From contig OZ219747.1 in assembly GCA_964291265.2 (NCBI GenBank), positions 2,176,001 to 2,240,000 of the forward strand: a stretch of DNA of 64,000 bases, written 5' to 3'. A program made the position numbers and the translations under genes. The first letter of the stretch is position 1, and every line of letters begins with the position of its first letter. Of the stretch, positions 26,922 to 56,938 are shown piece after piece. The notes beneath the pieces were generated by a model. The model worked only from the letters and a program-made list of their open reading frames with translations, had not been told where the DNA came from and did not search any database. Source of the stretch: Alphaproteobacteria bacterium. GTDB taxonomy: Bacteria > Pseudomonadota > Alphaproteobacteria > SP197.

Positions 26922-27766
26922 GGCGCCGCCAGCCGGCGGCGTCGCCACGCGATCTCGCGGTTCCACAGCGTTTCGTCAGGGGCGCGTCGGCGGCGCACCA
27001 GGCACCAGGCAAGGGACACGGCTAGGGCGACGCGAATCCAGTCCGCCAGGGCCCTCGACTCGCCTTCCATGCTGGTTGCCGCAAGGAGAATCCGGCGTTC
27101 TTGCCCCTCGAGACCGGCCTCCGACGCGAAGTAGGCCGGATCCCACAGCGGGTGGCAGAGAGCCGCATACTCCCAGTCCAGGAAGGTGACGCTGGTTCCG
27201 TCATCGATGATGTTCGCGGCGACGGGATCGACATGGGAAGCGACCGGCGTGGCGTCCGCGGGATGGCAGACATGCCTCAGGGCGTCCACGACGGCCCAGC
27301 CGGCGCCGAAGGTGTCCGGCGCTTCGGGCGAGGTGCACCCCGCGTCGTCAAGATAGGTCTCCAGCTTCTCCCAGGGATCCATCACGCCGGTGAACCCGGT
27401 GGCCTGTCTGAGCTTCCGGAAGGCGCGGCCCAACCTCTGCAGGACAGGTGCGGCGAAGGGGCGTTCCATGGCGTCCAGAAGCCGACCATCCGCGAAACGA
27501 TAGAGAATCAGCCCTCTGCCGGGATCGGCCGCCAGGATGTGTGGCGCGACGCCGAGGGAAGACGCCACCCTCATGTGGTCGCACTCCCGCGAACGGTCGA
27601 CGATGTCCGCGTTCCCGCTCCCGGCAAGACGCAGGACGACATCGTCTCCTGCAAGGAGGAGACGCACGGCCCGGTTCGCGCTTCCGCGATATGTGTCCGT
27701 GATCTGCAGATCGCGCGGATCGCGACCGAGATGTTCGAGGGCACGGGCGATCTCCGGATGGGTCAT
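26918..27766 (-). CDS. Choline/ethanolamine kinase-like phosphotransferase
   Basis: VDRSREC, SHVDPVAANI (Brenner-like), FLDWEYA. Confidence 0.78.
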   Translation of the reverse strand: MTHPEIARALEHLGRDPRDLQITDTYRGSANRAVRLLLAGDDVVLRLAGSGNADIVDRSRECDHMRVASSLGVAPHILAADPGRGLILYRFADGRLLDAMERPFAAPVLQRLGRAFRKLRQATGFTGVMDPWEKLETYLDDAGCTSPEAPDTFGAGWAVVDALRHVCHPADATPVASHVDPVAANIIDDGTSVTFLDWEYAALCHPLWDPAYFASEAGLEGQERRILLAATSMEGESRALADWIRVALAVSLAWCLVRRRRAPDETLWNREIAWRRRRLAAP

Positions 27767-27814
27767 GGCGGCGCACCTTGCCCCGAGGCGCCGCGACTGG
27801 CAAGACTGCCGGTC

Positions 27815-28405
27815 ATGGCCGACAGTCTTGCCATCCTGCTGGAGGAAATCCGCGCCTGTCGCATGTGTGCCGGGGACCTTCCCTGCGGCCCGCGGCCTGT
27901 CATCAGAGCCGAATCGGGCGCCCGGCTGCTGATCATCGGACAGGCGCCAGGCTCCCGTGTCCATGCCAGCGGCATTCCCTGGGATGATGCCAGCGGTGAC
28001 CGTCTGAGAACGTGGATGGCCATCGACAGGACCGTCTTCTACGACACCCGGCGCATTGCCATCATGCCCATGGGCTTCTGCTATCCCGGCAGGGACAGGA
28101 ATGGCGGCGACCGGCCGCCGCGCCCGGAGTGCGCACCCTTGTGGCATGAACGGGTCCTGAAGCGCCTGCCGTCAGTCGAACTCACCCTGCTGGTTGGACG
28201 CTACGCCCAGGCGCGCTATCTGCCGCCGGCAGGGCGCATGACCATGACGGAAACCGTGGCGGCGTGGCGCGTCCACCTGCCTTCCGTTCTTACCCTGCCT
28301 CATCCCTCATGGCGCAACACGGCCTGGCTGCGGCGCCATCCCTGGTTTGCCACGGATGTCCTTCCCGAACTCCGCCGACGGACGGCCGCATTGACCGGTT
28401 CCTGA
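27815..28405 (+). CDS. Uracil-DNA glycosylase family protein
   Basis: IGQAPG, WDDASGDRLR, MGFCYPG, LPHPSWRN. Confidence 0.9.
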   Translation: MADSLAILLEEIRACRMCAGDLPCGPRPVIRAESGARLLIIGQAPGSRVHASGIPWDDASGDRLRTWMAIDRTVFYDTRRIAIMPMGFCYPGRDRNGGDRPPRPECAPLWHERVLKRLPSVELTLLVGRYAQARYLPPAGRMTMTETVAAWRVHLPSVLTLPHPSWRNTAWLRRHPWFATDVLPELRRRTAALTGS

Positions 28406-37513: not shown

Positions 37514-39118
37514 TCAGGCGTCGTCGAGCCAGACGTCCTCCCAGTACATCCAGCCGCCGAACCCGTGGGGGTGGCCCTTGAGGTCCTTCACCCGCGTGGC
37601 GTAGGCGTCGAGCCAGTTGGTGAAGACCGGCGTGATGGTCGAACCCTCATCGCGCATGATGATCTGTATCTCGCGGTAGAGCTCGCGGCGCAGGGTCTCG
37701 TCCACCGTCTTGCGGGCTTCGAGGACGAGGCTGTCGAACCTCTCGTGGGACCAGAAACTCTCGTTCCACGAACCGCCCGAGATGTAGGCGATGGCGAGCA
37801 TCAGGTCGGCGGTCGGCCGCCCGTACCAGCTCGAACCGCACCACGGCACCTTCATCCACACGGCGCTCCAGTACCCGTCGGCCGGCACCTTCCTGACGGT
37901 CACGTTGGCGCCCGCCTCGTTCATCAGTTCGGCCATGACGATACTGGCATTGGCGCCGCCGAAATTGTCATCCGAGGCATGGAGTTCGAAGGCGGCATTC
38001 TCCATGCCGGCTGCCTTGAGATGCCAGGCCACCTTGTCCGGGTCCCGTTCCAGGGCCTCGACGTCGGGGGCGAAGAAGGGATCGTGCTGCGGGATCGGGT
38101 GGTCGCGGCCGACCGTTCCGAGTCCGCCCCATCCGAGCTGCAGCATGCGTTCGCGGTCGACGGCGTGCTTGAGCGCCAGACGCACGTTGTTGTCGGTGTA
38201 GGGCGGCGTGTCGGCCCGCATGGGATAGGTCGGGTGGGCCCCGCCCGGCTGGTTCAGCACCTCGGCGTTGTCGGCCTCGTCGACGGAGGAGATGAGCTGG
38301 GGATCCAGCCCGATCATGATGTCGATCTCGTCCGACAGCAGCGCGTTCACCCGGGCCGAATTGTCCGGAATGCCGAAGCTCTCGATCTCGTCGACATAGG
38401 GGCGCCCGGTGCGGTGATAGTTGGGGTGGCGTTCGAAGACGGCGACGATCCCCGGGTCGAACTCCTTCACCATCCAGGGGCCGGTGCCGACGGCCGCGCC
38501 ACGGGCATAGCTGTCGTCGTCGGCGCCTTCAGGCTGGGCCGTGAAGTGGTACTCCGTCAGGAGATAGGGAACGTCCGCGTTCGGCGCCTTCATGCTGAAG
38601 ACGACGTGACCGGGGCCGTCGGCCGTGATGGACTCGACATCGCCGAGATAGGCGTTGGCCGGGGACCCGCCCTCGGGGTCGAGGTGGCGGTTGAAGGAAT
38701 AGGCGACATCGGCGGCGGTCATCGTCTTGCCGTTGTGGAACTCGACGCCTTCCAGGAGTTCCATGGTCCACCGGGTGGCATCGTCGTTCGGTTCCCAGCC
38801 TGTCGCGAGGTTGCCGACGAGTCCCTCGCCGGGGATGAAGTCGATCAGCCGGTTGTAGAGCAGGCCGGAACGGCCGATGTCGCTGCTGGCGACGATCTTC
38901 GTCGGATCAAGGGTATCGCCGGCGCTGCTGGTGGTGAACCCGGCCCGCAGCCTGCCGCCGGTGACGGGTTCATCCGCCTTTGCCTCGCTGATGGCGGAAT
39001 CGACGAATGCGGTCGCCGCGGCAGCCGACAGACCAAAGCCCATGAGGCCGTTCTGGAAATCGCGCCGAGAAACCCTGCCTTTCCGAAATTCCCTGATCAG
39101 GACATCCTTCCCTGTCAC
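37514..39118 (-). CDS. ABC transporter substrate-binding protein, family 5 (peptide/opine/nickel)
   Basis: Twin-Arg-like SRRDF leader; GVEFHNGKTMTAADVAYS, GTGPW. Confidence 0.9.
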   Translation of the reverse strand: MTGKDVLIREFRKGRVSRRDFQNGLMGFGLSAAAATAFVDSAISEAKADEPVTGGRLRAGFTTSSAGDTLDPTKIVASSDIGRSGLLYNRLIDFIPGEGLVGNLATGWEPNDDATRWTMELLEGVEFHNGKTMTAADVAYSFNRHLDPEGGSPANAYLGDVESITADGPGHVVFSMKAPNADVPYLLTEYHFTAQPEGADDDSYARGAAVGTGPWMVKEFDPGIVAVFERHPNYHRTGRPYVDEIESFGIPDNSARVNALLSDEIDIMIGLDPQLISSVDEADNAEVLNQPGGAHPTYPMRADTPPYTDNNVRLALKHAVDRERMLQLGWGGLGTVGRDHPIPQHDPFFAPDVEALERDPDKVAWHLKAAGMENAAFELHASDDNFGGANASIVMAELMNEAGANVTVRKVPADGYWSAVWMKVPWCGSSWYGRPTADLMLAIAYISGGSWNESFWSHERFDSLVLEARKTVDETLRRELYREIQIIMRDEGSTITPVFTNWLDAYATRVKDLKGHPHGFGGWMYWEDVWLDDA

Positions 39119-40355: not shown

Positions 40356-40360
40356 CAGGC

Positions 40361-41308
40361 ATGTTCAGGCTGATCATCAGACGACTGTTTCTTGGTCTTC
40401 TGACTCTCCTGGCCATCACCGTCCTGGTCTTTCTCGGCACGGAAATCCTCCCCGGGGATGTCGCCCAGGCGATCCTCGGACAATCGGCCACGCCGGAGAC
40501 CGTGGCCGCACTGCGCGAGAAACTCGGCCTCGGCGCTCCGCCCTGGGAACGCTACTTCACCTGGCTCGCCAACACTCTTGCCGGTGATCTCGGCAACTCG
40601 CTCGCCAACGGCGTCCCCGTCGACAGGATTATCGGCCAGCGTATCGTCAACACGATCAATCTCGCCCTCTACGCCACGGTCATTGCACTGCCCCTGTCGC
40701 TGCTTCTGGGCCTGCTGTCGGCGGCCTGGCCGGAGGGGACATTCGATCGCATGACCTCCTCGACCACCGTGTTCTTCATCTCGATCCCGGATTTCGTCAT
40801 CGCCATCATCCTCATCATCGTCTTCGCCCGTGAACTGGGCTGGTTTCCTTCAGTCGTGCACCGGCCGAGATGGGGCGATGTATCGGTGGCCCTGGGCCAG
40901 ACCTTCCTGCCCATGCTGACTCTCGTCCTCACCATCCTTGCCCACATCATCCGCATGACGCGCGCCGCGGTCCTCGACGTCCTCAAGCAGCCCTACATCG
41001 AGATGGCCTTGCTCAAGGGGGCCCCCAAGTCGCGCATCATCATCCGTCACGCCATTCCCAACGCACTGGGACCGATCGTCAACGTGGTGGCCCTCAATCT
41101 CGCTTACCTGGTGAGTGGCGTGGTGATCGTCGAAGTCATCTTCACCTACCCCGGGCTGGGCCGCCTCATGGTGGATTCCGTCGTCTTCCGTGACCTGCCT
41201 CTCATCCAGGTGGCCGCACTCGTGTTTTGTGGCTTCTATGTCGCTCTCAACATCACCGCCGATGTCATCGCCATCATGGCCAACCCGCGCCTGAGGTTTG
41301 CCAGGTGA
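40361..41308 (+). CDS. ABC transporter permease (DppB-like)
   Basis: LPGDVAQAILG, EAA-like YIEMALLKG, YPGLGRLMVD. Confidence 0.9.
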   Translation: MFRLIIRRLFLGLLTLLAITVLVFLGTEILPGDVAQAILGQSATPETVAALREKLGLGAPPWERYFTWLANTLAGDLGNSLANGVPVDRIIGQRIVNTINLALYATVIALPLSLLLGLLSAAWPEGTFDRMTSSTTVFFISIPDFVIAIILIIVFARELGWFPSVVHRPRWGDVSVALGQTFLPMLTLVLTILAHIIRMTRAAVLDVLKQPYIEMALLKGAPKSRIIIRHAIPNALGPIVNVVALNLAYLVSGVVIVEVIFTYPGLGRLMVDSVVFRDLPLIQVAALVFCGFYVALNITADVIAIMANPRLRFAR

Positions 41309-42171
41309 CCGGATTCACGGGTCGTACCCGTTCAAGACGGGCCCGGCCGCGCCCCGACGGATGGGCCTGGGCAGGCATCGTCATTGTCTCGGCCGGCCTC
41401 CTTCTTGCGGTCGCCGGGCCGTTCCTGGCGCCCCACGAGGTCGGCGCCATCATCTCGGAATCCAATTTCGAGGCGCCCGGCATCAACACGATCCTGGGGA
41501 CCGATACGCTGGGCCGTGACATCCTGTCGCGTCTCCTCCATGGTGCCCGCCTGACGGTGGGTGTGGCGCTGGCCGCCACGGCGCTCGGCTTCCTCATCGG
41601 CTTGGCCGCCGGGTTCTCGGCGGCGGAGATCAAGGGTCGCTACGACGACGTCATGCTGTGGCTGGCGGACATGATGCTGTCCTTTCCGCCGCTGTTGCTG
41701 GCCCTGATCGTCATCGCCTCCCTTTCGTCGAGCCTGCCGGTTCTCATCTGCACGATCGCGGTGCTTCACGCCTCCCGCGTGGCCCGTGTCGGCCGTGCGG
41801 TGGCCATGAACGTCGCCGCCCTGGAGTTCGTCGAGGTGGCGCGGGCGAGGGGGGAGGGCCTGGCGTCCATCCTGGTGCGCGAGATCTGGCCTTCGACGAT
41901 TCGTCCCCTGGCCGTCGAGTTCGGACTGCGCCTGACCTACTCGATCCTCTTCCTGTCGAGCCTGAGTTTCCTCGGGCTGGGCATTCAGCCGCCGAACGCC
42001 GACTGGGGCTCCATGGTGAGGGAGAACCTGAACGCCCTGCAGACGGGCGCCTATCCTGCCGTGCTGCTGCCGGCTTTCTCCATCGCCATCCTGACGGTCG
42101 GGGTCAATCTCATCGTCGACTGGCTCGGAGCGCAGTCAGGTCGATCGATTTCCGAAGAGCTCACCGGATGA
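41305..42171 (+). CDS. ABC transporter permease (DppC-like)
   Basis: LGTDTLGRDILSRL, FVEVARARGE, LSFLGLGIQPP. Confidence 0.9.
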   Translation: MTGFTGRTRSRRARPRPDGWAWAGIVIVSAGLLLAVAGPFLAPHEVGAIISESNFEAPGINTILGTDTLGRDILSRLLHGARLTVGVALAATALGFLIGLAAGFSAAEIKGRYDDVMLWLADMMLSFPPLLLALIVIASLSSSLPVLICTIAVLHASRVARVGRAVAMNVAALEFVEVARARGEGLASILVREIWPSTIRPLAVEFGLRLTYSILFLSSLSFLGLGIQPPNADWGSMVRENLNALQTGAYPAVLLPAFSIAILTVGVNLIVDWLGAQSGRSISEELTG

Positions 42172-44705
42172 CGGCCTTTCTCAGAATTGAGGATCTCGTC
42201 GTCGAGGGGCGGCCGCCGTCAGGAGTCTGGGTGGAGACGGTGCATCGTTGCAGCGTGGAGGTGCATCCAGGCGAGGTCGTGGCACTGATCGGCGAATCGG
42301 GGGCCGGCAAGACGACGGTGGCGCTGGCGGCGCTGGGTTATGCGCGGCCGGGAACCCGATTCCGGAACGGCAGGGTCCTTCTCGAGGACCGCGATGTCCT
42401 CGCCATGTCGCTGGCCGAGAAGCGTGACCTGCGCGGCCGCGACATCGCCTACGTTGCACAGAGTGCGCAGGCCTCGCTCAACCCCTCCATTCCCGTGGGC
42501 GAACAGGTTGCCGAAAGTCTGCACCTGCATCGGATCGCCGCCGGTGCCGATGCTGCGCGGCGGATGATCGAGCTGCTCGATCTCCTCGACATTCCACATC
42601 CCGAGATGATTGCGCGGCGCTATCCGCACCAGACGTCGGGTGGTCAGCAGCAGCGCATCATGATGGCCATGGCACTGGCCTGCCGGCCCCGGCTGCTGGT
42701 GCTCGACGAACCGACGACGGCGCTCGACGTGACAACGCAGATCGAGGTGCTCAAGGCGATCAAGTCGGTCACTCGCGACCTCGGTACCGCATCGATCTAC
42801 GTCAGCCATGATCTTTCCGTCGTCGCCCAGGTGGCCGACAGGATACTGGTCATGAACCAGGGGCATGTCGTGGAACAGGGGGACACCTCCCGCATTCTCG
42901 ACGCTGCGAAGGAGGACTACACGCGAACCCTGCTGGGCGCGGTGAAGTCGCCGCCCTCGCCCGGGAGAGGGCTGGTCGACCGTTCCGTGACGCGCGACAG
43001 CGATCCGGCGATCTCCGTCACGCATACCTCGGCCAGCTATGTCCGGCAGGCGCTGTTCGGCAGCATCGAGCGTGAACAGTACGTGCTTCATGACATTGCG
43101 CTCGATGTCTGGCCTCGCGAAGTGCTGGCCGTGGTCGGCGAATCGGGGAGCGGCAAGTCAACCCTTGCCAGGGTCATGGCCGGTCTTCATCCACCCCTTC
43201 CCGGCGCCAGGATCACGCTTGACGGCGATCTCCTTGCCGGCCGGGCGAGGCGCAGGACACGCGATCAGCTTCGTCGCATTCAGATCATTTTCCAGAGCCC
43301 GGACCAGTCACTCAATCCGGAACGGCGCGTCGACGACGCCATCGGCAGGCCCCTCGAACTCTATTTCGGCATGTCGGGTTCCGAGAAGTACGACCGGATT
43401 GCCGATCTCCTCGAGATGGTCGGACTCGACCCCGATGACGCGGGACGCTTTCCCGCCGAGCTGTCGGGGGGTGAGCGCCAGCGTGTCTCCATTGCCAGGG
43501 CCTTTGCCGCCGAGCCTGACGTCATCCTGTGTGACGAAGTTCTCTCCGCCCTCGATACCGTGGTGGCCGCCCGTGTGCTCGAACTGATGAAGGAACTGCG
43601 GGAATCCCAGCAGGTGGCATACGTCTTCATCAGCCACGATCTCTCGACGGTCGCGTCGATCGCCGACCGGGTGGCGGTCATGTATGCCGGCAGGATCGTC
43701 GACGTCGGGTGCACCGACGATGTGTTCGCCCCGCCGCATCATCCCTACACGCAGCTTCTCATCAACTCCGTGCCGGTGCTGCGCCAGGGATGGCTCGAGG
43801 AGGTCATCACAAGCCGCGAGACGGAAGCGGGCATGCGGTGTGCCAGGCGAACTGGCGGAAGGTAGGGGGTGAAAGTCCCCTGGAACGAAGGAGTAACCAA
43901 ACCACGTTTCTCCGCGAGCCGTGCGTCGGTTCCCGCGAGGGGGCAGGCGAAGCGTCGGTAGCGGTACGGATGGGCAGGGCTAATGAGCACCGAAAAAGCT
44001 ATCATCCGGGGTGCCGAGGCTTTCGCATTGGTCGAAGGCAACATCGCAGGCATCGATTTGGTGAGATGTCGGCGAGCCCCGCGGTGTCAGAGAACCCATG
44101 CACGTCCGCACGCCTTCTGTTGGGACCCTGGGAGATCTTCAAACCGTCCCGCCGGTTGTGGCGGGACCGCATGGGGAAGGAGAAAACCGAAGCCTATGAT
44201 GTACGGTTTGAAGAAGTCGGATGAGGCCGTAGTACCTGTGAAGGCGGCGAACAAGGAAGCGTTAGCTTCTGCGGAGTCGCTGGAGGAAAGGGCCTCAACC
44301 AAGGGGAATCCGGGACGCTAAAGCACGCACCGAACGCAGTGTCGGGCAAGCGTGCCACAGGCGGCGGATCGGATACGGGAAGCCGCAGGCTAGTCCAGTG
44401 GTTTGCCGTCCAGTACCCGAGGTAGGAGCCGGATGGATTAACGTCCACGTCCGGATCTGCGCGGGGGGTGCGCAGCAATGCGCATCCCTACCGCGTCTTC
44501 CAATGTCATGCTTCACGACCGCCCGTGTCCCTTTCGCATGCGCTGCCCCCTTGTCATGTCCGGAACCTGCGACAGGGAGCCGGCACCGGCAAGGGAGATG
44601 GCAAACGGGCACATCGTCATGTGCCAGCACGACGAGGCAACCCTCCTCGCGGCGCAGGGCGGGGCCCCGGGGTCGAGGAGGGCAGTCATCTCTCGCGGCA
44701 GGTAG
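42168..44705 (+). CDS. Fused DppD/DppF ABC ATPase interrupted by a group II intron (exons 42168-43837 and 44498-44705; 625 aa spliced)
   Basis: Two Walker A motifs (GESGAGKT, GESGSGKS) and HPYT; exon 2 continues in frame with CPFRMRCP..C..HIVMC. Confidence 0.85.
43838..44497 (+). mobile_element. ORF-less (internally deleted) group II intron
   Basis: 5' GTGTG; closely similar to the ends of 55020-56938; domain V GAGCCGGATGG..CACGTCCGGATC and domain VI retained; 1259 nt shorter than the full copy. Confidence 0.92.
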
Positions 44706-45322: not shown

Positions 45323-47221
45323 ATGCTGCGCTTCTGGACGACCTTCCTCATGCTTCTCTTCGCTCCGCTCGCGTCGGTCGGCGCCGAGGCGCCGAACCCG
45401 AAATGCGCCGGGATGAGTGAGGGCGCCGAATGCTGGATTGAACTCGCCGAGCGGCCCGGCTGCTATGTTTTCAATCACTACTACGAACCCTCCGAGACGG
45501 TGACCTGGTTCGGCGAATGCCAGGACGGTCTCGCCGTTGGGCCGGGAACCTTGGGGCGGGAGTCCGCCGGCAGTTCCAGCGAGGCCACGGGGACGTTGGT
45601 GCGGGGCAAGCGGCACGATCACTGGGTCTTTCGCTACGCTGACGGATCCGTCGAGGCAGGCCCTTTTGTCGACGGCAAGCGGCACGGCCATTGGGGCGCT
45701 CGCACAGCTGATGGATCCGTCCTTGAAGGCCCATGGGTCGAGGGCAAGCGGCATGGCCACTGGGTCGCTCGCACAGCTGATGGATCCGTCCTTGAGGGCC
45801 CGTATGTCGAGGACAAGCAGACCGGCCATTGGGTCTATCGCTTGGATGGCGGCTATGTCGGGCAAGGCCCATATGTGGACGGCAAGGAGCACGGCCACTG
45901 GGTCTTGCGCGGGCCTAACGGACACGTCAAGGAAGGCCCCTATGTCGAAGGCAAGCAGACCGGCCACTGGGTCATTCGCCACGCTGATGGCACCGTCGAG
46001 GAAGGCCCCTTTGTCGACGGCGAACGGCACGGCGAATGGATCGCTCGCGTGGCTGACGGCACTGTCGAGGTAGGCCCTTATGTCGAGGGCAAGCAGACCG
46101 GCCACTGGATCATTCGCCGGAATGACGGCATCGTCGATGAAGGACCTCTTGTCGACGGCAAGCGGCAAGGCCACTGGGTTTTTCGTGCGGCTGACGGACA
46201 CGTCGGGGAAGGCCCTTTTGTCGACGGCAAGAAGCACGGCCACTGGGTCTTTCGCTACGCTGGCGAATTCGTCGAGGAAGGCCCTTTTGTCAACGACAAG
46301 CGGCACGGCCGCTGGGTCCTTCGCGCGGCTGACGGGTCCGTCGGGGAAGGCCTTTATGTCGACGACAAGATGACCGGCCATTGGGTGATTCGCCACGCTG
46401 ACGGCATCGTTGAGGAAGGCTCCTATGTCGACGGCAAGAAGACCGGCCACTGGGTCATTCGCCTGAATGACAGCGCCGTCGTGCAAGGCCCTTATGTGGA
46501 CGGCAAGCAGACCGGTCACTGGGTCATTCGCCGGAATGACGGCGCCGTCGAGGAAGGCCTCCTTGTGGACGGTATGCGGCACGACCTCTGGATCTTGCGC
46601 TACGCTGACGGATCCGTCCATGAGGGCCCTTATGTCGACGGCAGGAAGACCGACCACTGGGTGATTCGCCACGCTGACGGCATCGTCGAAGAAGGTCCTT
46701 ATGTCGATGGCAAGCAGCACGGCAAATGGGTCATTCGCCACGCTGACGGATCCGTCGAGGAAGGTCCTTATGTGGACGGAGAGCGACACGACCACTGGGT
46801 CGTTCGCTGGCCTGACGGATCCCTCCATGAAGGCCCATATGTGAACGGTAAGAAGACAGGCCACTGGGTCATTCGCTGGCCTGACGGAGACATCGGGGAA
46901 GGCCCTTATGTCGACGGCAAGCGGCACGGTCACTGGGTCTTTCGCTACACTGACGGGTCCGTCCATGAAGGCCCTTATGTGGATGGAGAGCGACACGACC
47001 ACTGGGTCGTTCGCGCGGTTGACGGATCCGTCCATGAAGGCCCTTATGTCGACGGGAAAAAGACTGGCTACTGGGTCGTTCGTGCGGCTGACGGATCCAT
47101 CGACCAAGGCCCCTATGTCGACGGCGAGCGGCACGGCCAATGGATCATTCGCTACGCTGACGGCACTACGGTCCACGATCGTTATGTTGAGGGCTTGCTT
47201 GTGGATGAGCCTTTGGATTGA
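45323..47221 (+). CDS. Secreted MORN-type repeat protein, long paralog (23 repeats of 23 aa)
   Basis: Signal peptide, 4-Cys cap, GGAG RBS; consensus YVDGKxxGHWVxRxADGxVxEGP. Confidence 0.88.
   Translation: MLRFWTTFLMLLFAPLASVGAEAPNPKCAGMSEGAECWIELAERPGCYVFNHYYEPSETVTWFGECQDGLAVGPGTLGRESAGSSSEATGTLVRGKRHDHWVFRYADGSVEAGPFVDGKRHGHWGARTADGSVLEGPWVEGKRHGHWVARTADGSVLEGPYVEDKQTGHWVYRLDGGYVGQGPYVDGKEHGHWVLRGPNGHVKEGPYVEGKQTGHWVIRHADGTVEEGPFVDGERHGEWIARVADGTVEVGPYVEGKQTGHWIIRRNDGIVDEGPLVDGKRQGHWVFRAADGHVGEGPFVDGKKHGHWVFRYAGEFVEEGPFVNDKRHGRWVLRAADGSVGEGLYVDDKMTGHWVIRHADGIVEEGSYVDGKKTGHWVIRLNDSAVVQGPYVDGKQTGHWVIRRNDGAVEEGLLVDGMRHDLWILRYADGSVHEGPYVDGRKTDHWVIRHADGIVEEGPYVDGKQHGKWVIRHADGSVEEGPYVDGERHDHWVVRWPDGSLHEGPYVNGKKTGHWVIRWPDGDIGEGPYVDGKRHGHWVFRYTDGSVHEGPYVDGERHDHWVVRAVDGSVHEGPYVDGKKTGYWVVRAADGSIDQGPYVDGERHGQWIIRYADGTTVHDRYVEGLLVDEPLD
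45596..47182 (+). repeat. Coding tandem array, 23 x 69 bp
   Basis: Strict 69-nt period with no indels; 23 Trp-anchored units counted. Confidence 0.92.
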
Positions 47222-47941: not shown

Positions 47942-48199
47942 CAGACAGAACTCAGGCGGTCACCAACGTACAGGACGGCGCACCACACAAGGCCAGGTCC
48001 CGAAGCGTAGCCTGCGCACGCTCCACAAGGTCCACAAGACCACGGCAGGTCATGTCGGCGGCGATTTAGAACGGCGGGATATTGGCGGAGAACCGCTCTT
48101 TTGGGCGCTGATCGTGTGAGTGGGTGACCACGACAGGAGAACGTGCGGCATTGGACGAAGGTCCGCCCGGTCTTTGTTTTCTGCCTATTGTTGGATCCC

Positions 48200-48560
48200 A
48201 TTGGTCTTGCATTGACGTTGACGATGTCGTTCCGGTCGGCGTTTTCTGGCGTTCGGCGTTTGTGGAACGTGATGTGGGAGGGGAGCTTCAGGCTTTTGCG
48301 CGTGGTTTCGTTCTGGCGTTCTCCGTCCTCGTCGTGGTTCGTCGGGCGGGACGATCTCGAGGCTGGAGAGCTGACGGTTTCTGTTGCGCTGGGCGAAGAG
48401 GCTGCGTGCGTTGCGGTTGCGGCGGCGCAGGGTGCGGCAGGCGTCGAGTGTTTTCGGGCGGATGCTGCGACCTGTGAGCCAGTCCGGCGGCGGATCGGGC
48501 GTTGCTGCGGCTCAGCGGCTGCGGCAGTCTCGTGATGTGGTGTCGTTTGGACGGCCCGGG
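48200..48560 (-). pseudogene. Decayed, internally deleted copy of the toprim gene
   Basis: Aligns by eye to ~49340-49470 and ~49718-49925. Confidence 0.7.
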
Positions 48561-49142
48561 GGTTTCCCGGGGAGGCTGAGAGGCGCGTCGGGGTGAGACG
48601 TTCTCATTCCTGGATGGTAACGCGTGACCGCGTTCAAGGGTCTTGCGAGATTACGTGTCCCTTCCGTAGCCGCGTGGCGGTTCGATGTCCTCGAGAGCCT
48701 CGATGTCGGCATCGGCGACGCTCTGCAGGCGTTCTCCGTAAGGCGTGTCACGGAGGGTTTCGGGGATGCTGTCGAGGCGGTCACGCCATTCGTCCTGCAG
48801 GGTGCGGCAGGCGTCGAGTGTTTTCGGGCGGATGCTGCGACCTGTAAGCCAGTCCGGCCAGCGGCTGCGGCAGTCTCGTGATGCGGTGTCGTTTGGACGG
48901 CCCGGGGGTTTCCCGGGGAGGCTGAGAAGCGCGTCGGGGTGAGACGTTCTCATTCCTGGATGGTAACGCGTGACCGCGTTCAAGGGTCTTGCGGGATCAC
49001 GTATCCCTTCCGTAGCCGCGTGGCGGTTCGATGTCCTCGAGGGCCTCGATGTCGGCATCGGCGACGCTCTGCAGGCGTTCTCCGTAAGGCGTGTCACGGA
49101 GGCTTTCGGGGATGCTGTCGAGGCGGTCACGCCATTCGTCCT
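48427..49142. repeat. Tandem direct repeat (370 bp + 346 bp)
   Basis: 48427-48796 nearly identical to 48797-49142 apart from a 24-bp indel; GCAGGG at the junctions. Confidence 0.88.
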
Positions 49143-49287
49143 GCAGGGCGCGCAGTTCGGCCACGGCGTCGTTCCAGCGTTGCGGTCGCGAGCGCCGGTC
49201 ACGGTGCTTTGGGGTGTGGACGGGAGGGATGCCGGCCTTGCGCCGTTCCCGGTATCGCCGCTGCTTTTCGGCGGGCGTGAGGGGCAT
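48997..49287 (-). CDS. Small hypothetical protein
   Basis: MPLTPAEKQRRYRERR..PPRGYGRDT; AGGAG RBS upstream. Confidence 0.7.
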   Translation of the reverse strand: MPLTPAEKQRRYRERRKAGIPPVHTPKHRDRRSRPQRWNDAVAELRALQDEWRDRLDSIPESLRDTPYGERLQSVADADIEALEDIEPPRGYGRDT

Positions 49288-49313
49288 GAGTGGTCTCCTT
49301 GTGACGGACGTGG

Positions 49314-50207
49314 TCATGATCTCGCTTGTGGTTCTTTGGTCCTGGCGTTGACGACGTCGTTCCAGTCGGCGTTTTCCGGCGGTCTGCGTCTGTGGAACGA
49401 GACGTGGGAGGGGAGCTTCATCTTTTTGCGCAGGGTTTCGGCCTGTCGCTCTCCGGCCTCGTCGTGGTCCTGGGCGAGGACGATGGTCCTGACGTTGGGC
49501 AGGCTGCTTGCGGCGAGGCTGATCTGTTCGTGCTGTCTTCGCGAGGGTGCCCCGGCGGTGGAGAGGAAGGCGTGGCTGGGGGGACATTGGTCGATCTGGG
49601 CCAGGCTGAGGGCGTCGACGGCGCTTTCGGTGATGACGAGGGCCTCGAGGTCCGCGGCGGTTCCGGCGCGGACGGCGAACAGGCTTCGGGTTCCACCGGT
49701 GGCGAAGCGTTTCGGTCCGTCGGGGGGACCGATCTCGAAGCCGGTGAGCTTTCGCTTCCTGTTGCGATGGGCGAAGAGGACGCGTCCGTTGTGGTCGCGG
49801 CGGACCAGGGGGCGGCAGGTGTCGAGGGTCTCCGGGAGGATGCCGCGCCCGGTGAGCCAGTCCGGGGCCGCATCGGGCGTTGCCGCGGCCCAGAGGCTGC
49901 GGAAGTCGCGTGGCGCGGCGTCGGGTGCTGCGAAGCGGGTGCAGATGTCGGCGAAGGCCAGTCCGCGGTTGAGCATGAAGTCGATGACGGTTCCGTTGTC
50001 TTCATCGTTCTGGGTGTTGAAGTAGACCCAGTGTCCGTTGTTGAGGCACTTCGTGACGAGCTTCGGCAGGCCGGGTGCGCACAGGACGGGGTTGGCGCGT
50101 GTCGAGGCCTGTTCGTCGCGGACGTATCCCCAGTCGGCGGCGATGCGTTCGAACGGCATGCGCTTGACGGCGTCGAAGTCGACGCGGCGGGGTTTATCGG
50201 GTTTCAC
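49314..50207 (-). CDS. Toprim-domain / primase-like protein (DUF3991 + toprim architecture)
   Basis: NGTVIDF, WLTGRGI, ITESAVDALS, AQDHDEAG, DWND; start overlaps the istB end. Confidence 0.78.
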   Translation of the reverse strand: MKPDKPRRVDFDAVKRMPFERIAADWGYVRDEQASTRANPVLCAPGLPKLVTKCLNNGHWVYFNTQNDEDNGTVIDFMLNRGLAFADICTRFAAPDAAPRDFRSLWAAATPDAAPDWLTGRGILPETLDTCRPLVRRDHNGRVLFAHRNRKRKLTGFEIGPPDGPKRFATGGTRSLFAVRAGTAADLEALVITESAVDALSLAQIDQCPPSHAFLSTAGAPSRRQHEQISLAASSLPNVRTIVLAQDHDEAGERQAETLRKKMKLPSHVSFHRRRPPENADWNDVVNARTKEPQARS

Positions 50208-50895
50208 GCCTGAGCCGCCAGGAGTCGCTGTCGATGGAGATGAGGGTTGCGTCGTGCATGAGCCGGTCGACGGTGCCGGCGATGCCGGAGGCGCTGGGGA
50301 AGACGCGGTCCCACTGGGCGAAGGCGAGGCTTGTTGTGACCATGGTCGAGCGGCGCTGATAGCGCCGCGAGACGATGGCGTAGAGGATGTCGGCATGGTG
50401 GCTTTCGAGGGTCACGTAGCCGATTTCGTCGAGGACGAGCAGGCGGGGCCTGGCGAGGATCGCGAGGCGGCGGCGCAGCTCGCTGCGCGAGACGGTCTCG
50501 GCGAGTGCCTCGAGCAGTTCCGGCGCCTTCTCGAAGCGGACGGTGTGGCCGTGCAGCAGGGCCTGGTGCGCCACGTTGGCGGCGATCATGGTCTTTCCGG
50601 TGCCCTGCCCGCCGACGAGCACGGCGTTGTCCGCACGGTCGACGAAGCCGAGGCCGAGGAGCGCTTCGACATGAGCCCGGCTGATGTCGCGCGGCCATGT
50701 CCAGTCGAAGTCCGCCAGGGGCTTGAAGGCGGGCAGCCGCGCCGCGGCGCGGCGGCGCTCGTGGCTGCGGGCCCTGCGGGCCTGTTCCTCGCCGCTGACC
50801 ACCTCCTCGATCCATGCGGTCCCGGCGACCTCGTCCCAGCGTTCGACGAGCCCGTGGAGGCCGAGCGCCCGGGCACGCTCCCTGAGCTCGCTCAT
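50194..50895 (-). CDS. istB: IS21 helper ATPase IstB
   Basis: LADFDWTW, GGQGTGKT, LLVLDEIGY, VDRLMHDA, SWR. Confidence 0.92.
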   Translation of the reverse strand: MSELRERARALGLHGLVERWDEVAGTAWIEEVVSGEEQARRARSHERRRAAARLPAFKPLADFDWTWPRDISRAHVEALLGLGFVDRADNAVLVGGQGTGKTMIAANVAHQALLHGHTVRFEKAPELLEALAETVSRSELRRRLAILARPRLLVLDEIGYVTLESHHADILYAIVSRRYQRRSTMVTTSLAFAQWDRVFPSASGIAGTVDRLMHDATLISIDSDSWRLRRETR

Positions 50896-52385
50896 GTCTT
50901 GTTCCTGGCGCTGGCTTCGGGCCTGTCGTAGGCGTCGAGAGCGGTCCCCCGCGGCGTCGTGCCACGGCCGCCGCGGCCGTCGTCGGCGATGCTGAGGGGC
51001 GGCAGGCCCTGCTCCCGGCGGCGCTCCTCGATGATGACGCGCACGGTTTCGGGGTGGCACGAGCCGCGCTCCAGCGCCGTGGCGACAGCCCGGTCGAGAG
51101 CGTCGGCGCCGTGCGCGTTGAGAAGCGTCTCCAGCATCCGGGCGCAGGAGGCCACGTTGCGCCCGTTGGTCCCGGCGCGCGCCAGCATCTCCTCGGCCCG
51201 CGGCACGGTGCGCAGGACCCGGTCGCGGACGCTCATGGAGCGGGCCCGCCGCTTGCCCGCGGCGATCGCCCTGGCATGCTCCGGATCGGTGACGGCCTGC
51301 TTCCTGTCGTAGGAGCGTCGGTGGCGCGCGACCTCGTCGGCGCCGTCGAGGATGCGAACCTCGTCGCGGTCGGCGACCAGCGTCAGCAGGGCCTTGGAGA
51401 AGCTACCCGGAACGCTGTAGTCGTTGGTGTCGAAGCGGGCGTGGCAGGTCTTGTCGATGCGCACCGGGCGGACCTCGTGATGCGGGAAGGGGTCGACGGG
51501 AAGGACGATCAGGTGCTCCCTCTCCCGGGCGAAGGCGTCCCGCACCAGGAGACTGTCGTCGTCCGGCCAGGGCCGCTCCGCGGCGGCGCCGAAGCACCAC
51601 TCCCGAACTGCGGCGTTGAGCTCGCCGAGCGGGACCGTGATGTCGCGCCCGGCGAAGAACCCGGTGCGCGCGAAGCGCACACGGCGTTCCACGCGGCCCT
51701 TCTCCTGCGGGCTCCTGGGCCAGGCGGCGCTCGGTTCGAAGGCATAGTGGGCCGCGAGGCCGAGCAGCATCGGATGATAGGTGACCGCCTTGCCGCGGCG
51801 CGTCACCACGGCACTCTTCAGGTTGTCGTACAGAAGCCTCCGCGGCACACCCCCGAATGCCGCGAAAGCCTCGACATGGCCTTGCAGGAAGCTGGCCATC
51901 CGCGCGTCGTGGAACAGGCTCAGGACAGTCTGGCGCGAGTAGCTGAGGGTGACGAGAAGCCCCATGAGCCTGCGCTCCGCCCGGCCGATGCGGACCTTCC
52001 CGAACTCGGCCCAGTCAACCTGCGCCTGCTCGCCCGGAAGGAAGCTCAGCCGCAGCGACGGCTCGGGCCTCTTCACCGGCCTCAGCCCGAGGCGGCGCAG
52101 GTCGTGACGGAAGTGATCCTCGCCGCCGCGGTAGCCCAGAGCCACGACCTGTCGCCAGAGCGTGCTGGCCGGAAGGTCCGGCGACGCCTCAAGACGCTCC
52201 CCGAGGAAGGCAACGAAGGGGTCGATGAGCTTGGCCCGCGGCCGCCGCTCCTGCCCCGACGCCTTGAGCGCCCGCGTCACCGTGCCGTGGTGCACGCCGA
52301 GATGCCGGGCAATCGTCCCCACAGCCCAGCCCTCGGCCCGCGACAGCCGCACGATCGTCGCCCGCGTGTCCTCGTCGATCGCCAT
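50892..52385 (-). CDS. istA: IS21 transposase IstA
   Basis: N-terminal HTH; PGEQAQVDW, LYDNLKSAV, EKGRVER, FDTNDYSVP. Confidence 0.92.
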   Translation of the reverse strand: MAIDEDTRATIVRLSRAEGWAVGTIARHLGVHHGTVTRALKASGQERRPRAKLIDPFVAFLGERLEASPDLPASTLWRQVVALGYRGGEDHFRHDLRRLGLRPVKRPEPSLRLSFLPGEQAQVDWAEFGKVRIGRAERRLMGLLVTLSYSRQTVLSLFHDARMASFLQGHVEAFAAFGGVPRRLLYDNLKSAVVTRRGKAVTYHPMLLGLAAHYAFEPSAAWPRSPQEKGRVERRVRFARTGFFAGRDITVPLGELNAAVREWCFGAAAERPWPDDDSLLVRDAFAREREHLIVLPVDPFPHHEVRPVRIDKTCHARFDTNDYSVPGSFSKALLTLVADRDEVRILDGADEVARHRRSYDRKQAVTDPEHARAIAAGKRRARSMSVRDRVLRTVPRAEEMLARAGTNGRNVASCARMLETLLNAHGADALDRAVATALERGSCHPETVRVIIEERRREQGLPPLSIADDGRGGRGTTPRGTALDAYDRPEASARNKT

Positions 52386-52417
52386 GAACTCCCTCCCTTT
52401 GGTTCCTCAACGCCGCA

Positions 52418-52894
52418 TCACGGGTCCCTCAGCACCACATGCGTCACGACCCGTCCGCATCTGGCGCACCGAAGCGGCGATTCGCGCCGCTCTCGCGCCT
52501 TCACAACCGCAGGTAGGGAGGTCGGCAGCAGTCGGGAAGGGTGGTCCGTAACGATTTCTTCAGAACCGGCGTCTCCAGACACCGCCGGAACGTCGCCAAG
52601 CAGCACCACAGCAGACGTCTGCGTGTCCATGATCTCGGCAACCATCGCCGCCCTGGCCTTCAACGCACGCGCCTCCTCCGCCTTGCGGAGCCGGTAACGC
52701 CGCTGGCGGTGACGGCCCGTCTCACGGCCCTTCAGCGTGCTCTGGTAGCGACGACGCGACGCGCGGCGCCGCTCGATCCGGGACCGCTCCCTGCACTCCT
52801 TGGAGCAATACACATGCCCCCGGTCACACGACCGGCAGAGAACAACCTGCCGCTGACACCGCCTGCAGTTGAACAGTCGTCCTGTCGTGCACAC
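52418..52894 (-). CDS. Cys-rich basic (zinc-finger-like) protein upstream of istA; start uncertain
   Basis: CRRC..CRSCDRGHVYCSKEC, Arg-rich helix, C-terminal CARC. Confidence 0.65.
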   Translation of the reverse strand: MCTTGRLFNCRRCQRQVVLCRSCDRGHVYCSKECRERSRIERRRASRRRYQSTLKGRETGRHRQRRYRLRKAEEARALKARAAMVAEIMDTQTSAVVLLGDVPAVSGDAGSEEIVTDHPSRLLPTSLPAVVKARERRESPLRCARCGRVVTHVVLRDP

Positions 52895-53212
52895 CGTCCG
52901 TCTCGAGAGCGGGGGTGGACCCGGACGCAAAATGGCTCGACAATACACGGGAGTTCGGTCCCCCGTGACCGGCTCGTCCGGGTGCTGCGCCGGGGGGCGT
53001 CACAACTCCGCCCGGCATCGCATCGCTCTTTCTCTTGATGCCGATCTAGCATCCACCCGGGGCGGCGGCAAAGACGCCGCCCCGGGACCGGACAACGCGA
53101 CCCGCCCACAGGGAAGACAGACGATCCCGCGAGTGCCTCGGAACCGGAACCCTCCCGGCAACCGTCACCAAGACCGAAGCAGAGGTCGACGGAACCCGAA
53201 CCGGACCAAAAC

Positions 53213-53304
53213 GACAATAGGAAAAGACGGCGGCGCTCGGGGAGACAACCAGCCGAACACTCAAACCACGACAACAGGACGTGACAATAGGACCTGACAA
53301 CAGG
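53213..53304 (+). repeat. GACAAYAGG direct repeats, three at 13-bp spacing
   Basis: Copies at 53213, 53270, 53283 and 53296. Confidence 0.7.
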
Positions 53305-53899
53305 GAAGAAACACGACCCTGACAAAGCGCGGCAAATCGCCGAAATCCCGCCGTTCTATGCAGCCATCAACAGGTCAGGATGTCTGAACTTCTGGTCTTG
53401 GATTTTCGCGACGGTAACGGTGCATGCACAGGCAGTGAGCGGAACCACAGGGCTTTTCTTTTGTCGTCCCGGCGCTCGGCGCACGCAGGATTCTGGGGGT
53501 GGACATCCCGTTTTCGCCGTGGCAGTGTGCCGGCATGACGACGCTTGTGACCCCAGATTCCCCTATCGACCTTCACGAGGTGACGGTGCGCCCGACCCGT
53601 GGCGCACGTGAGCACCGGCTCTGGGATCGTCTGGTCAAGGAGCATCACTACCTGCGGTTTCACGGCATCATCGGCAAGGGCCTGCGCCATGTCGCCCTGC
53701 ACGGCGAGACCTGGGTGGCGCTGGTCGGCTGGCAGCCGGGCTCGTTCAAGCTTGCTGCACGCGACCGCTGGATCGGCTGGACTGCGGAGCAGCAGTTCCG
53801 GCGCCTGCATCTGATCGCGAACAATTCCCGGTTCGTCATTCTTGGCCCGAGGTAAGCGTTCGGCCACGCGGTGATTGTTGGTGATATTCACCGGTTGAG

Positions 53900-54195
53900 G
53901 ATGCGTTTGGGAGGCGCACCACGTGGCGGTTCGCTGTTGGGTCCGAAGACGATGGGTCCGGGTCGGGTTGCTCGTCGTTGGGGTGGCGGCAGGGTGATGA
54001 GGCCGTCGCGGTGCATGGCCAGAAAGGCGACATTCGCCATCATGTTCTTGAGGCCCCGTCGGGCTTGTATCAGCCGGTCTCGCGGCAGAAGGCGCGGGCG
54101 ATGGCCGCACGGGTGGGGTGCTGGGTGATCAGGGAGCGCAACAGCGCCATCTCGTGCGCGGTGAAGTCACGGCCGTCGTAACGGCACTCGATCAC
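53900..54195 (-). pseudogene. N-terminal fragment of a DUF4338-type protein inside IS66
   Basis: RYDGRDFTAHE..ARAFCRETG*YKPDG / LKNMMANVAFLAMHRDGLITLPPP; stop and frameshift; GTGA overlap with the tnpC stop. Confidence 0.6.
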
Positions 54196-55019
54196 CCCGG
54201 TTCCATGAGGTCCCGTCGGCGCTCCGGGGTCATCGACCATGGCAGCCACGGGTCGAGGTCATCCGGCGGCTTGCCGCCGTTCTGCGCGCAGGCCTCAAGC
54301 CACTCATGAAGCCAGCGCCGAACATTGATGTTGTTCATGGCAAGGGTGCCGATGACCGAGTACATGATGGCGGTGAAGGCGGCGCCTTCCTCGCTGTCGG
54401 AGCCGAAGCTCAGCTTTCTCGCGGTCACCGCACCCCGGAGGGTTCTCTCGGCCAGGTTGTTGTCCATGGGCACCTGGGGATGGTCGACAAAGACGCACAG
54501 TCCCTCGCGGTGACGGATCAGGGAACGCAAGGGCTTCGCTTCGCGTGCACCCTCGGGCAAGGCGTCGAGTTCCTCCTGAGCCTGCCTGAACAGCGCCTCG
54601 ACAGCCGCACGAAGGTCCTTCTGCAGGGCATTGAACCTCGCTGACTGACGCTTGCGTGCGGGATCGTAGTGCTTCAGCCGTTGCCCATTCAGTGTGTAGA
54701 TCAGCGCGATCCTGTCGAGCCACTTGTCGCACCACTCTTCCAGCCCCTCTTGGCCTGCCGCAGCCTCGATCACATCGCGCCTGGAGTGCGCCCAGCAAAG
54801 GCAGAGGATCACCTTGCCATCAAGCTCACGCTCCAGTTTCCTGTAGACCACGTAGCGGTCGCAGACAAGGAAGACGGTGCCTTCGGTGGAGGCGAACAGC
54901 ACCATGGCCACCCGGGTGCTGCGTGACGGGTCGATAAGGAAGAAGACGGAGTCGGCGCTGACCGCGGTCCACAGCCAGGCCTTCTGCGAGCGCCCCGAGG
55001 CCTTGAGGGACTGGATGCG

Positions 55020-56938
55020 GTGTGCCAGGCGAACTGGCGGAAGGTAGGGGGTGAAAGTCCCCTGAAACGAAGGAGTAACCAAACCACGTTTCTCCGCGAG
55101 CCGTGCGTCGGTTCCCGCGAGGGGGCAGGCGAAGCGTCGGTAGCGGTACGGATGGGCAGGGCTAATGAGCACCGAAAAGTCCGTTGTTCGGGGTGCCGAG
55201 GCTTTCGCATCGGTCGAAGGCAACATCGCAGGCATCGATTTGGTGAGATGTCGGCGAGCCCCGCGGTGTCGGAGAACCCATGCACGTCCGCACGCCTTCT
55301 GTTGGGACCCTGGGAGGTCTTCGAACTATCCCGCCTGTCGTGGCGGGACCGTGTAGGGAAAGGAGAAAGCCGAAGCCTATGAGGAACGGTTTGAAGAAGT
55401 CGGATGGGGCCGTAAGACCGGTGAAGGCGGCGAACAAGGGAGCGTCAGCTTCTGCGGAGTCGCTGGAGGAAAGGGCCTCAACCAAGGGGAATCCGGGACG
55501 CCAAAGCACGCACCGAACGCAGTGTCGGGCAAGTGTGCCACAGGCGGCGGACCGGATACGGGAAGCTGCAGAGAGGAACCCGAAGGAGCGTCTCACTGCA
55601 CTCTTCCATCACATTACGCCGGACGCGCTCCGGGCGGCCTACTTCGGTTTGAAGAAGGAAGCCTCGGCAGGTGTCGACGGCGTGACGTGGGCGGCGTATG
55701 GCGAGGGTCTGGACGAGCGCTTGCTTGATCTGCACTCGCGCCTGCATCGTGGGGGAGCGTACCGGGCGCCGCCGGTTCGGCGGGTTGAGATACCCAAGCC
55801 GGACGGCGGGACACGACCGCTCGGGATTGCCGCACTGGAGGACAAGATCGTCCAGAAGGCGGTTGTGGATGTGATCCTGACACCGATTTATGAGGTGGAG
55901 TTCCTTGGCTTCAGCTACGGGTTCCGACCGGGCCGAGGGGCGCATGACGCTCTCGACGCCCTGGCGTTCGGGATCGAGCGGCGCAAGGTCAACTGGATAG
56001 TCGACGCGGACATTCAGGGGTACTTCGACACAATCCCGAGGGATTGGTTGATCAAGTTCCTGGAGCATCGCATTGGCGACAGGCGGGTGATCCGTCTGAT
56101 CCGCAAGTGGCTGAACGCTGGCGTCATGACCGACGGATCATGGAGCGACACCGGTGCGGGCACGCCTCAGGGCGCCATTGTCAGCCCCTGCCTGGCGAAC
56201 GTGTTTCTGCACTACGTGCTCGATCTGTGGTTTCACAAGGCATGGCGTCCGAAGGTTCCGAACGGTAAAGCGATCATTGTCCGCTACGCGGACGATATTG
56301 TGGTCGGGTTCCAGCATAAGCGGGATGCGGAGACATACCTTCGCGACGTTCGGGAGAGGCTGGACCGCTTTGGTCTCACCCTTCACCCGGACAAGACCCG
56401 TCTCGTTGAGTTTGGACGGTTTGCCAAGGCGAACCGGCGATCTCGCGGGGCGGGCAGGCCGGAGACGTTCGACTTCCTGGGCTTCACGCACTTCTGCACG
56501 GAGACCCGGAGAGGACGCTTCAGGCTTGGTCGCAAGCCGGTCGCAAAACGGGTCGCAAGGACCCTGGCGCGCATCGAGGAGGTGCTTCGCAATCGACGGC
56601 ATCACGACATATGGGAGGTCGGCATGTGGCTTGGGCGAGTTGTCAATGGCTGGTCCAACTACTTCGCCGTTCCGGGGTCGACCCGATGGCTGCGCACGTT
56701 CCGCCAAAGGCTGCAACGCCTATGGCTGCGAGCGATCCGCCGCCGCTCCCAGCGCCACTGCTTTGACTGGAAGCGATTGGAGCGCATGACCGAGCTTCTT
56801 TGGCCGCGCGTCTCCATCCGCCACCCATGGCCGGACCAGCGGTTTACCGTCAAGCACCCGAGGTAGGAGCCGGATGGATTAACGTCCATGTCCGGATCTG
56901 TGCGGGGGGTGCGCAGCAATGCGCATCCCTACCGCGAC
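55020..56938 (+). mobile_element. Full-length bacterial group II intron (1919 nt)
   Basis: 5' GTGTG, 3' CCCTACCGCGAC; domains V/VI at ~56866-56938; no TSD; flanks rejoin tnpC exactly. Confidence 0.95.
55535..56866 (+). CDS. ltrA: Group II intron reverse transcriptase/maturase, no endonuclease domain (start uncertain)
   Basis: GVDG, IPKPDGGTRPLGI, SYGFRPGR, DADIQGYFD, GTPQG, RYADD, FDFLGF, GWSNYF. Confidence 0.95.
   Translation: MPQAADRIREAAERNPKERLTALFHHITPDALRAAYFGLKKEASAGVDGVTWAAYGEGLDERLLDLHSRLHRGGAYRAPPVRRVEIPKPDGGTRPLGIAALEDKIVQKAVVDVILTPIYEVEFLGFSYGFRPGRGAHDALDALAFGIERRKVNWIVDADIQGYFDTIPRDWLIKFLEHRIGDRRVIRLIRKWLNAGVMTDGSWSDTGAGTPQGAIVSPCLANVFLHYVLDLWFHKAWRPKVPNGKAIIVRYADDIVVGFQHKRDAETYLRDVRERLDRFGLTLHPDKTRLVEFGRFAKANRRSRGAGRPETFDFLGFTHFCTETRRGRFRLGRKPVAKRVARTLARIEEVLRNRRHHDIWEVGMWLGRVVNGWSNYFAVPGSTRWLRTFRQRLQRLWLRAIRRRSQRHCFDWKRLERMTELLWPRVSIRHPWPDQRFTVKHPR

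Follow-up and report, generated by a model that had tools for sequence, protein, structure and literature searches.

The ATPase gene of a peptide/nickel-type ABC transporter in an alphaproteobacterium (GTDB lineage SP197, assembly GCA_964291265.2) contains a group II intron that lies in sense, has lost its reverse transcriptase (RT) gene, and would restore the protein if spliced out. The question arises as to whether such an intron has become part of the host gene's expression, or whether the gene is one target among others of a mobile element. The window analysed is the whole stretch of 64,000 nt at positions 2,176,001 to 2,240,000 of contig OZ219747.1 (forward strand), and bare coordinates below refer to it. 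We consider it quite probable that the intron is a non-autonomous element, present in 16 copies, which spreads on the protein of sister introns 94% identical to it; the ATPase gene would be a tolerated site in a transporter that is losing constraint, and the two siblings would split one IS66 family between them. The features on which the argument turns are the following.

37514..39118 (-), substrate-binding protein gene of the same transporter cluster
40358..42171 (+), two genes for permeases belonging to this transporter
42168..43837 (+), first exon of the ABC ATPase gene (peptide/nickel-type, two domains fused), in which the Walker A and signature motifs are all intact
43838..44497 (+), group II intron of 660 nt (GUGUG...UC) without an ORF; the genome has 13 identical copies, this one included
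43996..44000 (+), EBS2, from covariation across intron variants; it pairs with the ATPase exon at 3 of 5 positions, and equally so at the IS66 sites
44024..44029 (+), EBS1; it pairs with the ATPase exon at 5 of 6 positions, and equally so at the IS66 sites
44089..44089 (+), EBS3, an A opposite T at position +1 of exon 2 (in the sister, G opposite C)
44352..44393 (+), remnant of the RT ORF, 13 codons, in the retained start of domain IV, from comparison with the sister
44426..44457 (+), domain V with its AGC triad, from the RF00029 match and the fold
44460..44495 (+), domain VI with its bulged A at 44490, the 8th base from the 3' end, in a register read by hand from the predicted fold
44498..44662 (+), native part of exon 2 with a four-Cys motif, from congener orthologues
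44663..44705 (+), extension of foreign, repeat-derived DNA in place of the native stop, adding 12 codons
53851..57993 (-), IS66 copy carrying the full-length sister; on its sense strand, the short intron's site is unoccupied
55020..56938 (+), full-length sister intron, 1919 nt, ending GAC, antisense in the IS66 transposase gene
55535..56866 (+), RT/maturase ORF of the sister, 443 aa with an inferred start, TIGR04416

Downstream of the ATPase gene, the window encodes at 45323-47221 (+) a 632-aa MORN-like repeat protein with a signal-peptide-like start, which is single-copy among mobile DNA and matches NF033566 (LIC20035 family adhesin) below the cut-off. From 48053 to 64000 follows dense mobile DNA, with an IS21-family element (about 37 copies), IS66, ISAs1 and an IS4-like transposase; a similar transposase with an N-terminal DruA-like match is found at L001:2581-4872.

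The short intron is real, recently active and non-autonomous. It begins with GTGTG at 43838 and ends with CCGCGTC at 44497. The Rfam model RF02005 matches 43872-44096 with 170 bits (cut-off 49), the predicted fold of the whole element beats 20 of 20 shuffles (z=-5), and domains V and VI match RF00029 at 44424-44496 with E=1e-4, although at 33.6 bits, under the cut-off of 40. Against the 1919-nt sister, identity is 94% for its first 551 nt and again 94% for its 3' 101 nt; nucleotides 552 to 1809/1810 of the sister are gone, a deletion of 1259 nt that removed the RT ORF and whose junction falls at 44388/44389. The 5' GUGYG, the domain I core, the domain V triad and the domain VI bulged A are all in place, as is pairing of EBS1 and EBS3 with the exons; the 3' end is UC instead of the canonical AY, which we filed as a variant. 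An initial annotation had described an ORF-less, non-autonomous group II intron that keeps the start of domain IV and domains V-VI, and these observations bear it out in each respect. We regard 43838-44497 as a confirmed IIB-type intron without an RT gene of its own, whose splicing is predicted from the sequence.

The same annotation had pointed to a full-length sister with an intact maturase at 55020-56938, and rightly so: the ORF matches TIGR04416 with 356 bits (cut-off 300). No endonuclease domain was found in the sister protein, in which Pfam gives only RVT_1 and GIIM. The genome contains 11 copies of the 1919-nt sister, 9 of them identical; most are antisense insertions in the IS66 that the short intron also uses, some 785 nt away from the latter's site. 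RT-encoding sisters that could act in trans are therefore at hand, as had been supposed, and spread of the short intron by borrowing their enzyme is likely. A specific helper role for the sister at 55020 was rejected as unnecessary, since any of the 11 copies could serve. In a phylogenetic tree, the short intron clusters with the sister of its own genome (97/94). No 660-nt copy was found in 22 congeners (at best 89-90% across the first 551 nt), and a scan of metagenome contigs for the ORF-deletion junction gave 0 hits.

On OZ220465.1, a related intron has 730-nt ORF-less units with the same 5' breakpoint as the short intron and a different 3' one; a single origin of the two deletions is unsupported, as each groups in the tree with the full-length copies of its own genome, but gene conversion could mask a common origin. 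The OZ220465.1 loci (L042, L044, L046, L047, L048, L050 and L052) hold this relative, of 85% protein identity, adjoining a domain V-like sequence of another intron, in head-to-tail arrays of full-length and 730-nt ORF-less units, and the L052 units end in CC. Two sister copies at G000:C2:1918148-1926586 have a common non-IS 3' flank, and the 3' exon of one holds a short repeat of its own 5' exon sequence. Further variants of this intron, with other EBS1 and EBS2, lie at G000:C2:1375030, 1565520, 1430301 and 3954247, mostly as fragments or twintrons; several of the variant introns break around intron nt 390-395, where a second intron apparently has its target.

Seen from the window, the short intron seemed an isolated case, and this has to be corrected. 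The search for other copies with the same deletion, which the initial annotation had proposed, gave 16 TC-ending 3' junctions in the genome. Fourteen belong to copies inserted in sense at one site of a 2.2-kb IS66, and two to copies at the ATPase site, one in the window and one in a partial ATPase duplicate. All 16 copies are ORF-less and end in TC at precise junctions; 13 are identical (the window copy and 12 in IS66), one lacks 5 nt and another is split by an insertion. The two kinds of site resemble each other: the uninterrupted ATPase site of congeners equals the IS66 site at 17 of 18 bases (9/9 orthologues). This IS66 itself gives only a 70% match in congeners, in 1 of 22. A strict target motif, derived from the occupied sites themselves, has 28 hits, all in IS66 or the ATPase gene, and a looser one has 47, the 19 extra ones being unoccupied.

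EBS1, EBS2 and EBS3 covary with the exons across intron variants. Pairing is perfect for the sister at its IS site and for a third intron variant at its own site (in both cases EBS1 6/6, EBS2 5/5), whereas the short intron has EBS1 5/6, EBS2 3/5 and an EBS3 A opposite T at the ATPase gene and at both IS66 alleles. One EBS1 mismatch and two EBS2 mismatches at every occupied site count against the explanation that we prefer.

How stable is the insertion in the ATPase gene? The exon-intron junction is absent from all 22 congeners, in which three pattern hits have no intron. Four runs from one study were compared, each in the form of contigs. In run X3, a contig of 8426 nt joins 43837 directly to 44498, and 30 other letters differ from the window. 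We read this contig as a DNA allele lacking the intron and near-identical to the window, because contigs of X3 reach 169 kb in length and its allele is not the same as that of the window; if X3, whose library type is not on record, were RNA, the contig would be a spliced transcript instead. Fourteen ATPase differences were classified, among 19 listed of the 29 in the contig's first piece: the congener-majority residue is in X3 at six amino-acid sites and in the window at one, two sites are ambiguous and five differences are silent. In X1, which may be the source sample, there are contigs that stop precisely at 43837 and others that start precisely at 44498, a pattern to be expected from coexistence of the empty allele with the occupied one. 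In X2, the 3' end of the intron is present on exon 2: a contig starts at 44466 and runs unbranched into the exon at single-copy depth (18.9 versus 22.4), as expected if the ATPase copy is the sole TC-ending copy there. These X1 and X2 readings are both indirect, being taken from contig ends in a graph of 31-letter words. In a further, high-depth contig of X3, the 3' end of an AC-ending intron is followed immediately by the 5' end of an intron (window 44495 to 43838), which would correspond to circles or tandem copies; RmInt2 is reported to occur in head-to-tail copies (PMC4615759).

The ATPase duplicate (G000:C2:2242062-2249134, or L001:6062-13134) gives some indication of the order of events. 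It covers window 43265-44662, lies 21.4 kb downstream across DNA that is 88% multi-copy, and keeps the native stop and the downstream amidase. Its exons differ from those of the window at 9 of 738 bases, and the same site holds a TC-ending, ORF-less intron of 657 nt with a different, poorly matching EBS, interrupted by a nested element of 5678 nt with group II intron-like ends. This intron looks chimeric, and gene conversion evidently occurs. Since such an intron also occupies this position in the diverged duplicate, the TC end and the insertion into the ATPase gene both seem to predate the identical copies in IS66. We lean slightly towards the ATPase copy being older than the IS66 burst, which it may have seeded, given the duplicate and the X2 reading; the same observations could also result from gene conversion or from a second insertion.

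Two patterns bear on how the IS66 copies arose. The G-rich strand of a bacterial chromosome is its leading strand, and GC skew places the origin near 0.72 Mb, an approximate position (dnaA is at 0.65 Mb), and the terminus near 3.29 Mb. Relative to these, 14 of the 16 TC-ending copies are co-oriented with replication (p=0.004; 15 of 16 if the origin is put at 0.8 Mb), and one of the two that break the rule is close to the uncertain origin. For AC-ending relatives the count is 14/17 (p=0.013), and for probes of other multi-copy elements 38/70, 20/35, 9/11 and 6/11. The second pattern is the partition of IS66. Among its 27 copies, the short intron is alone in 13 and the sister alone in 10, the two occur together in 1 and are missing from 3, so that 24 are occupied by at least one intron; double occupancy was expected in 5.7 copies (p=0.0003). 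Overall, 16 IS66 copies are co-directional with replication and 11 head-on, and the occupants sort accordingly: 12 of the 14 short-bearing copies are co-directional, and 9 of the 10 sister-only copies head-on. These copies are not fully independent, as IS copies recombine and a few sister copies have common nested arrangements; they have differing flanks, and identical IS66 haplotypes, read by eye, are seen with and without the short intron. Insertion of endonuclease-minus introns biased to the lagging-strand template has been reported (PMC4615759), and a genome-wide strand bias is known for class D, E and ORF-less introns (PMC8919778). The bias here, together with haplotypes common to intron-free sites, points to separate retrohoming events, and therefore to a TC end that is probably not fatal to the intron.

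This is of some consequence, given the annotation's caveat that a TC end may impair the second splicing step. AY is the consensus 3' end of group II introns, not a strict requirement. At 76 related RT-bearing loci, ends were called for 37, all AY, the pattern having missed the other 39; ends read by eye are AC, with CC in one tandem array. RmInt1 is reported to end in CC and yet be mobile, and in vitro a penultimate U is among the changes most damaging to its second splicing step (PMC4238363). The caveat thus stands for RmInt1 in vitro, and a lower efficiency of forward splicing is plausible by analogy; it is countered here by 16 copies that all have TC at precise junctions. Insertion that is precise at multiple sites argues that the UC ribozyme would be able to run the reverse of the second step.

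Two other accounts of the IS66 copies have to be weighed. The intron could be a splicing-dead passenger, its ribozyme killed by the UC end, its copies produced by IS66 transposition and gene conversion, and the ATPase gene reduced to a pseudogene. The step-2 defect of the penultimate-U mutant of RmInt1, the AY ends of the 37 called relatives (with 39 of 76 loci missed by the pattern), the accumulation of twelve identical copies in one IS site and the gene conversion visible in the chimeric-looking duplicate intron would all fit. We nevertheless hold this account to be improbable, as it predicts no replication-strand bias and a single IS clade, both of which are contradicted, and the window copy is the same exact element at a non-IS site, without IS flanks; since passive carriage by the IS agrees with neither pattern, the short-intron copies would have moved on their own. 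The avoidance between the two introns could also result from selection or interference instead of fork polarity, doubly occupied IS copies being removed or one intron blocking the other. That both introns are found in only 1 of 27 copies, the short one there with its 5-nt deletion, is in keeping with this possibility, but it leaves the co-directional and head-on sorting of the occupants unexplained, and we give it only a very slight chance.

What does the insertion mean for the host gene? Removal of the 660 nt in silico gives an open 625-aa frame with Cys567, Cys573, Cys581 and Cys599, and the splice sites are right, since all 9 congener orthologues inspected are uninterrupted there. These nine are 91-93% identical (the whole orthologue set, 83-93%), measure 612-613 aa and have the four-Cys tail, so that the motif is seen in 10 of 10 sequences; none of the catalytic motifs of the ATPase is broken. 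The annotated 625-aa frame is thus restored with its four cysteines, but the natural protein has 613 aa, its native stop having been lost after 44662, where repeat-derived DNA contributes the last 12 codons. Unspliced, the frame stops at 43865 after 565 aa, without the Cys motif, as annotated. In E. coli DppBCDF, loss of the cluster cysteines is reported to disassemble the complex (PMC12136057), and for this reason we consider the protein made without splicing more likely to be defective than to serve as an isoform.

Private substitutions suggest that the gene is also less constrained than its orthologues. Non-synonymous to synonymous counts are 22:21 for the ATPase versus 25:86 in nine orthologues (p=0.0009), and 47:58 for the pooled transporter genes versus 68:290 in seven congeners (p=3e-7). 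Eight family-verified neighbour genes, which served as controls and are less sensitive because less conserved, give 67:101 versus 258:446 (p=0.48); left out were two ORFs at 26918-28405 in which coding and shadow stretches are mixed, a further ORF that is a shadow frame, and four for which there were <5 orthologues. The ratio of odds ratios between transporter and controls is 3.0 (p=0.0002), and the difference persists against the long-branch congener G012 alone (p=0.0003). By gene, against the seven congeners, the counts are 12:10 versus 36:105 for the binding protein, 6:12 versus 4:44 for permease B, 4:10 versus 8:50 for permease C (not significant alone, p=0.23) and 24:25 versus 15:87 for exon 1. 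The annotation had proposed decay of exon 2 as a check; exon 2 has 1:1 versus 5:4, too few changes for power on its own, and the excess sits in exon 1 and the partner genes. A binding-protein orthologue, L113 in G013, is likewise rich in private amino-acid changes (24:25). The transporter has the look of a host in decay, under relaxed constraint, although the amino-acid excess could be older than the intron or mark a substrate shift, and relaxation may have either followed or permitted the insertion.

The initial annotation had read the locus otherwise, as a partly domesticated intron on which a host gene depends: the host would need splicing in trans for an Fe-S-bearing ATPase, and the unspliced 565-aa product would possibly be a second isoform. 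The sense orientation, the exact restoration of the frame, the four cysteines kept and the intact catalytic motifs invite this reading, and the intron has persisted for some time, being found at the site in the window, in the diverged partial duplicate and in run X2. A tail-less protein is also conceivable, as a solved fused DppD of 548 aa, aligned over residues 27-536, has no space left for a Cys tail. However, the intron is not fixed at its site, given the empty X3 allele, and the junction occurs in 0 of 22 congeners; its mobility appears not to have been lost, as it is identical to 12 IS66 copies and the copies follow replication; and in place of purifying selection maintained on the host we see a transporter with relaxed constraint and a lost native stop. 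The E. coli complex, which falls apart without its cluster cysteines, speaks against a tail-less isoform. Neither the domestication nor a useful dependence of the host gene nor the two isoforms finds support in the comparison, and we regard them as very improbable.

We thus return to a mobile intron that uses the ATPase gene as a tolerated target, not as a partner. ATPase transcripts would be spliced with the help of the sister's maturase, and the spliced mRNA would restore the protein, although probably inefficiently because of the UC end. The excised intron RNA would insert into the lagging-strand template at replication forks. As the two siblings read opposite strands of IS66, the orientation of each IS copy would leave it mainly open to one of them.

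Among known systems, the closest is that of the TeI3 introns of Thermosynechococcus elongatus, ORF-less elements mobilised in trans by TeI4 proteins (PMC2882425). As reported there, one ORF deletion is common to all copies with ORF remnants on both sides, ORF-less copies outnumber ORF-bearing ones, changed EBS open new targets, twintrons occur, and some copies lie in host genes (PMC2882425). The present element likewise has an ORF deletion with remnants, the start of domain IV, an intact relative in the genome and precise, EBS-matched insertions. Unlike the sister protein, in which none was detected, the TeI4 protein has an endonuclease domain; here the copies follow replication polarity, the siblings insert into opposite strands of a single IS, and UC is the 3' end of the ORF-less family. 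More generally, a review describes bacterial ORF-less introns as rare and nearly always accompanied by RT-encoding relatives (PMC4424553).

The second parallel is with RmInt1, RmInt2 and Sr.md.I1 of Sinorhizobium (class D, IIB), reported as endonuclease-minus and IS-targeting, with a lagging-strand template bias and partly interchangeable proteins, Sr.md.I1 sitting in an IS66 (PMC4615759, PMC4238363). RmInt1 shares a non-AY end with the short intron, which differs in having a penultimate U, among the most damaging of the RmInt1 substitutions tested (PMC4238363). The absence of a detected endonuclease domain and the co-orientation with replication of both TC- and AC-ending copies are of this type. 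The Sinorhizobium introns bear ORFs, and RmInt2 reaches both orientations through inverted repeats (PMC4615759, PMC4238363), whereas here two siblings, one of them non-autonomous, reach both orientations of the IS.

From protein features, the short intron and its sister may be of class E. The diagnostic domain V loop of that class has 5 nt; in the predicted fold the loop has 4 nt closed by U-G. Class E and F (IIE/IIF) ribozymes are described as small, 450-700 nt without the ORF, with an EBS2 pairing that is dispensable for splicing (PMC3753933), which the 3/5 EBS2 match fits. As to the host, the Cys spacing of its putative cluster site, CX5CX7CX17C, is close to the CX5CX6CX17C of E. coli DppD among the [4Fe-4S] ATPases DppD, DppF and OppD (PMC12136057). 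The ATPase differs from DppD and OppD in being a fused two-domain protein, and in having its Cys domain severed in this genome by the intron unless spliced.

ORF-less introns that depend on a sister's protein are therefore an arrangement already published; what is unusual here is the UC end and the strand-wise split of one IS by two sibling introns. A literature survey by title and abstract opening, which took in few subscription papers, gave no multi-copy UC-ended intron and no siblings splitting one IS by orientation; supplementary intron tables could list other non-AY ends.

These observations carry several implications. A sense, in-frame, ORF-less intron inside a host gene is not in itself evidence of domestication. 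The UC-ended intron appears to have retrohomed repeatedly, and offers a natural, many-copy test of whether mobility in vivo depends on the conserved penultimate A; together with its sister, it offers another of how sibling endonuclease-minus introns share a target. More speculatively, and with considerable doubt, the transporter gene may have been the refuge of the UC-ended intron, from which it burst into an incoming IS66 that mimicked its site, the two introns then locking the IS family by fork polarity. If so, head-on IS66 copies would be knocked out, and co-directional copies would make transposase only via slow trans-splicing by the sister's maturase. In this genome, the siblings split one IS family by orientation relative to the fork, a partition that can be read from a single genome.
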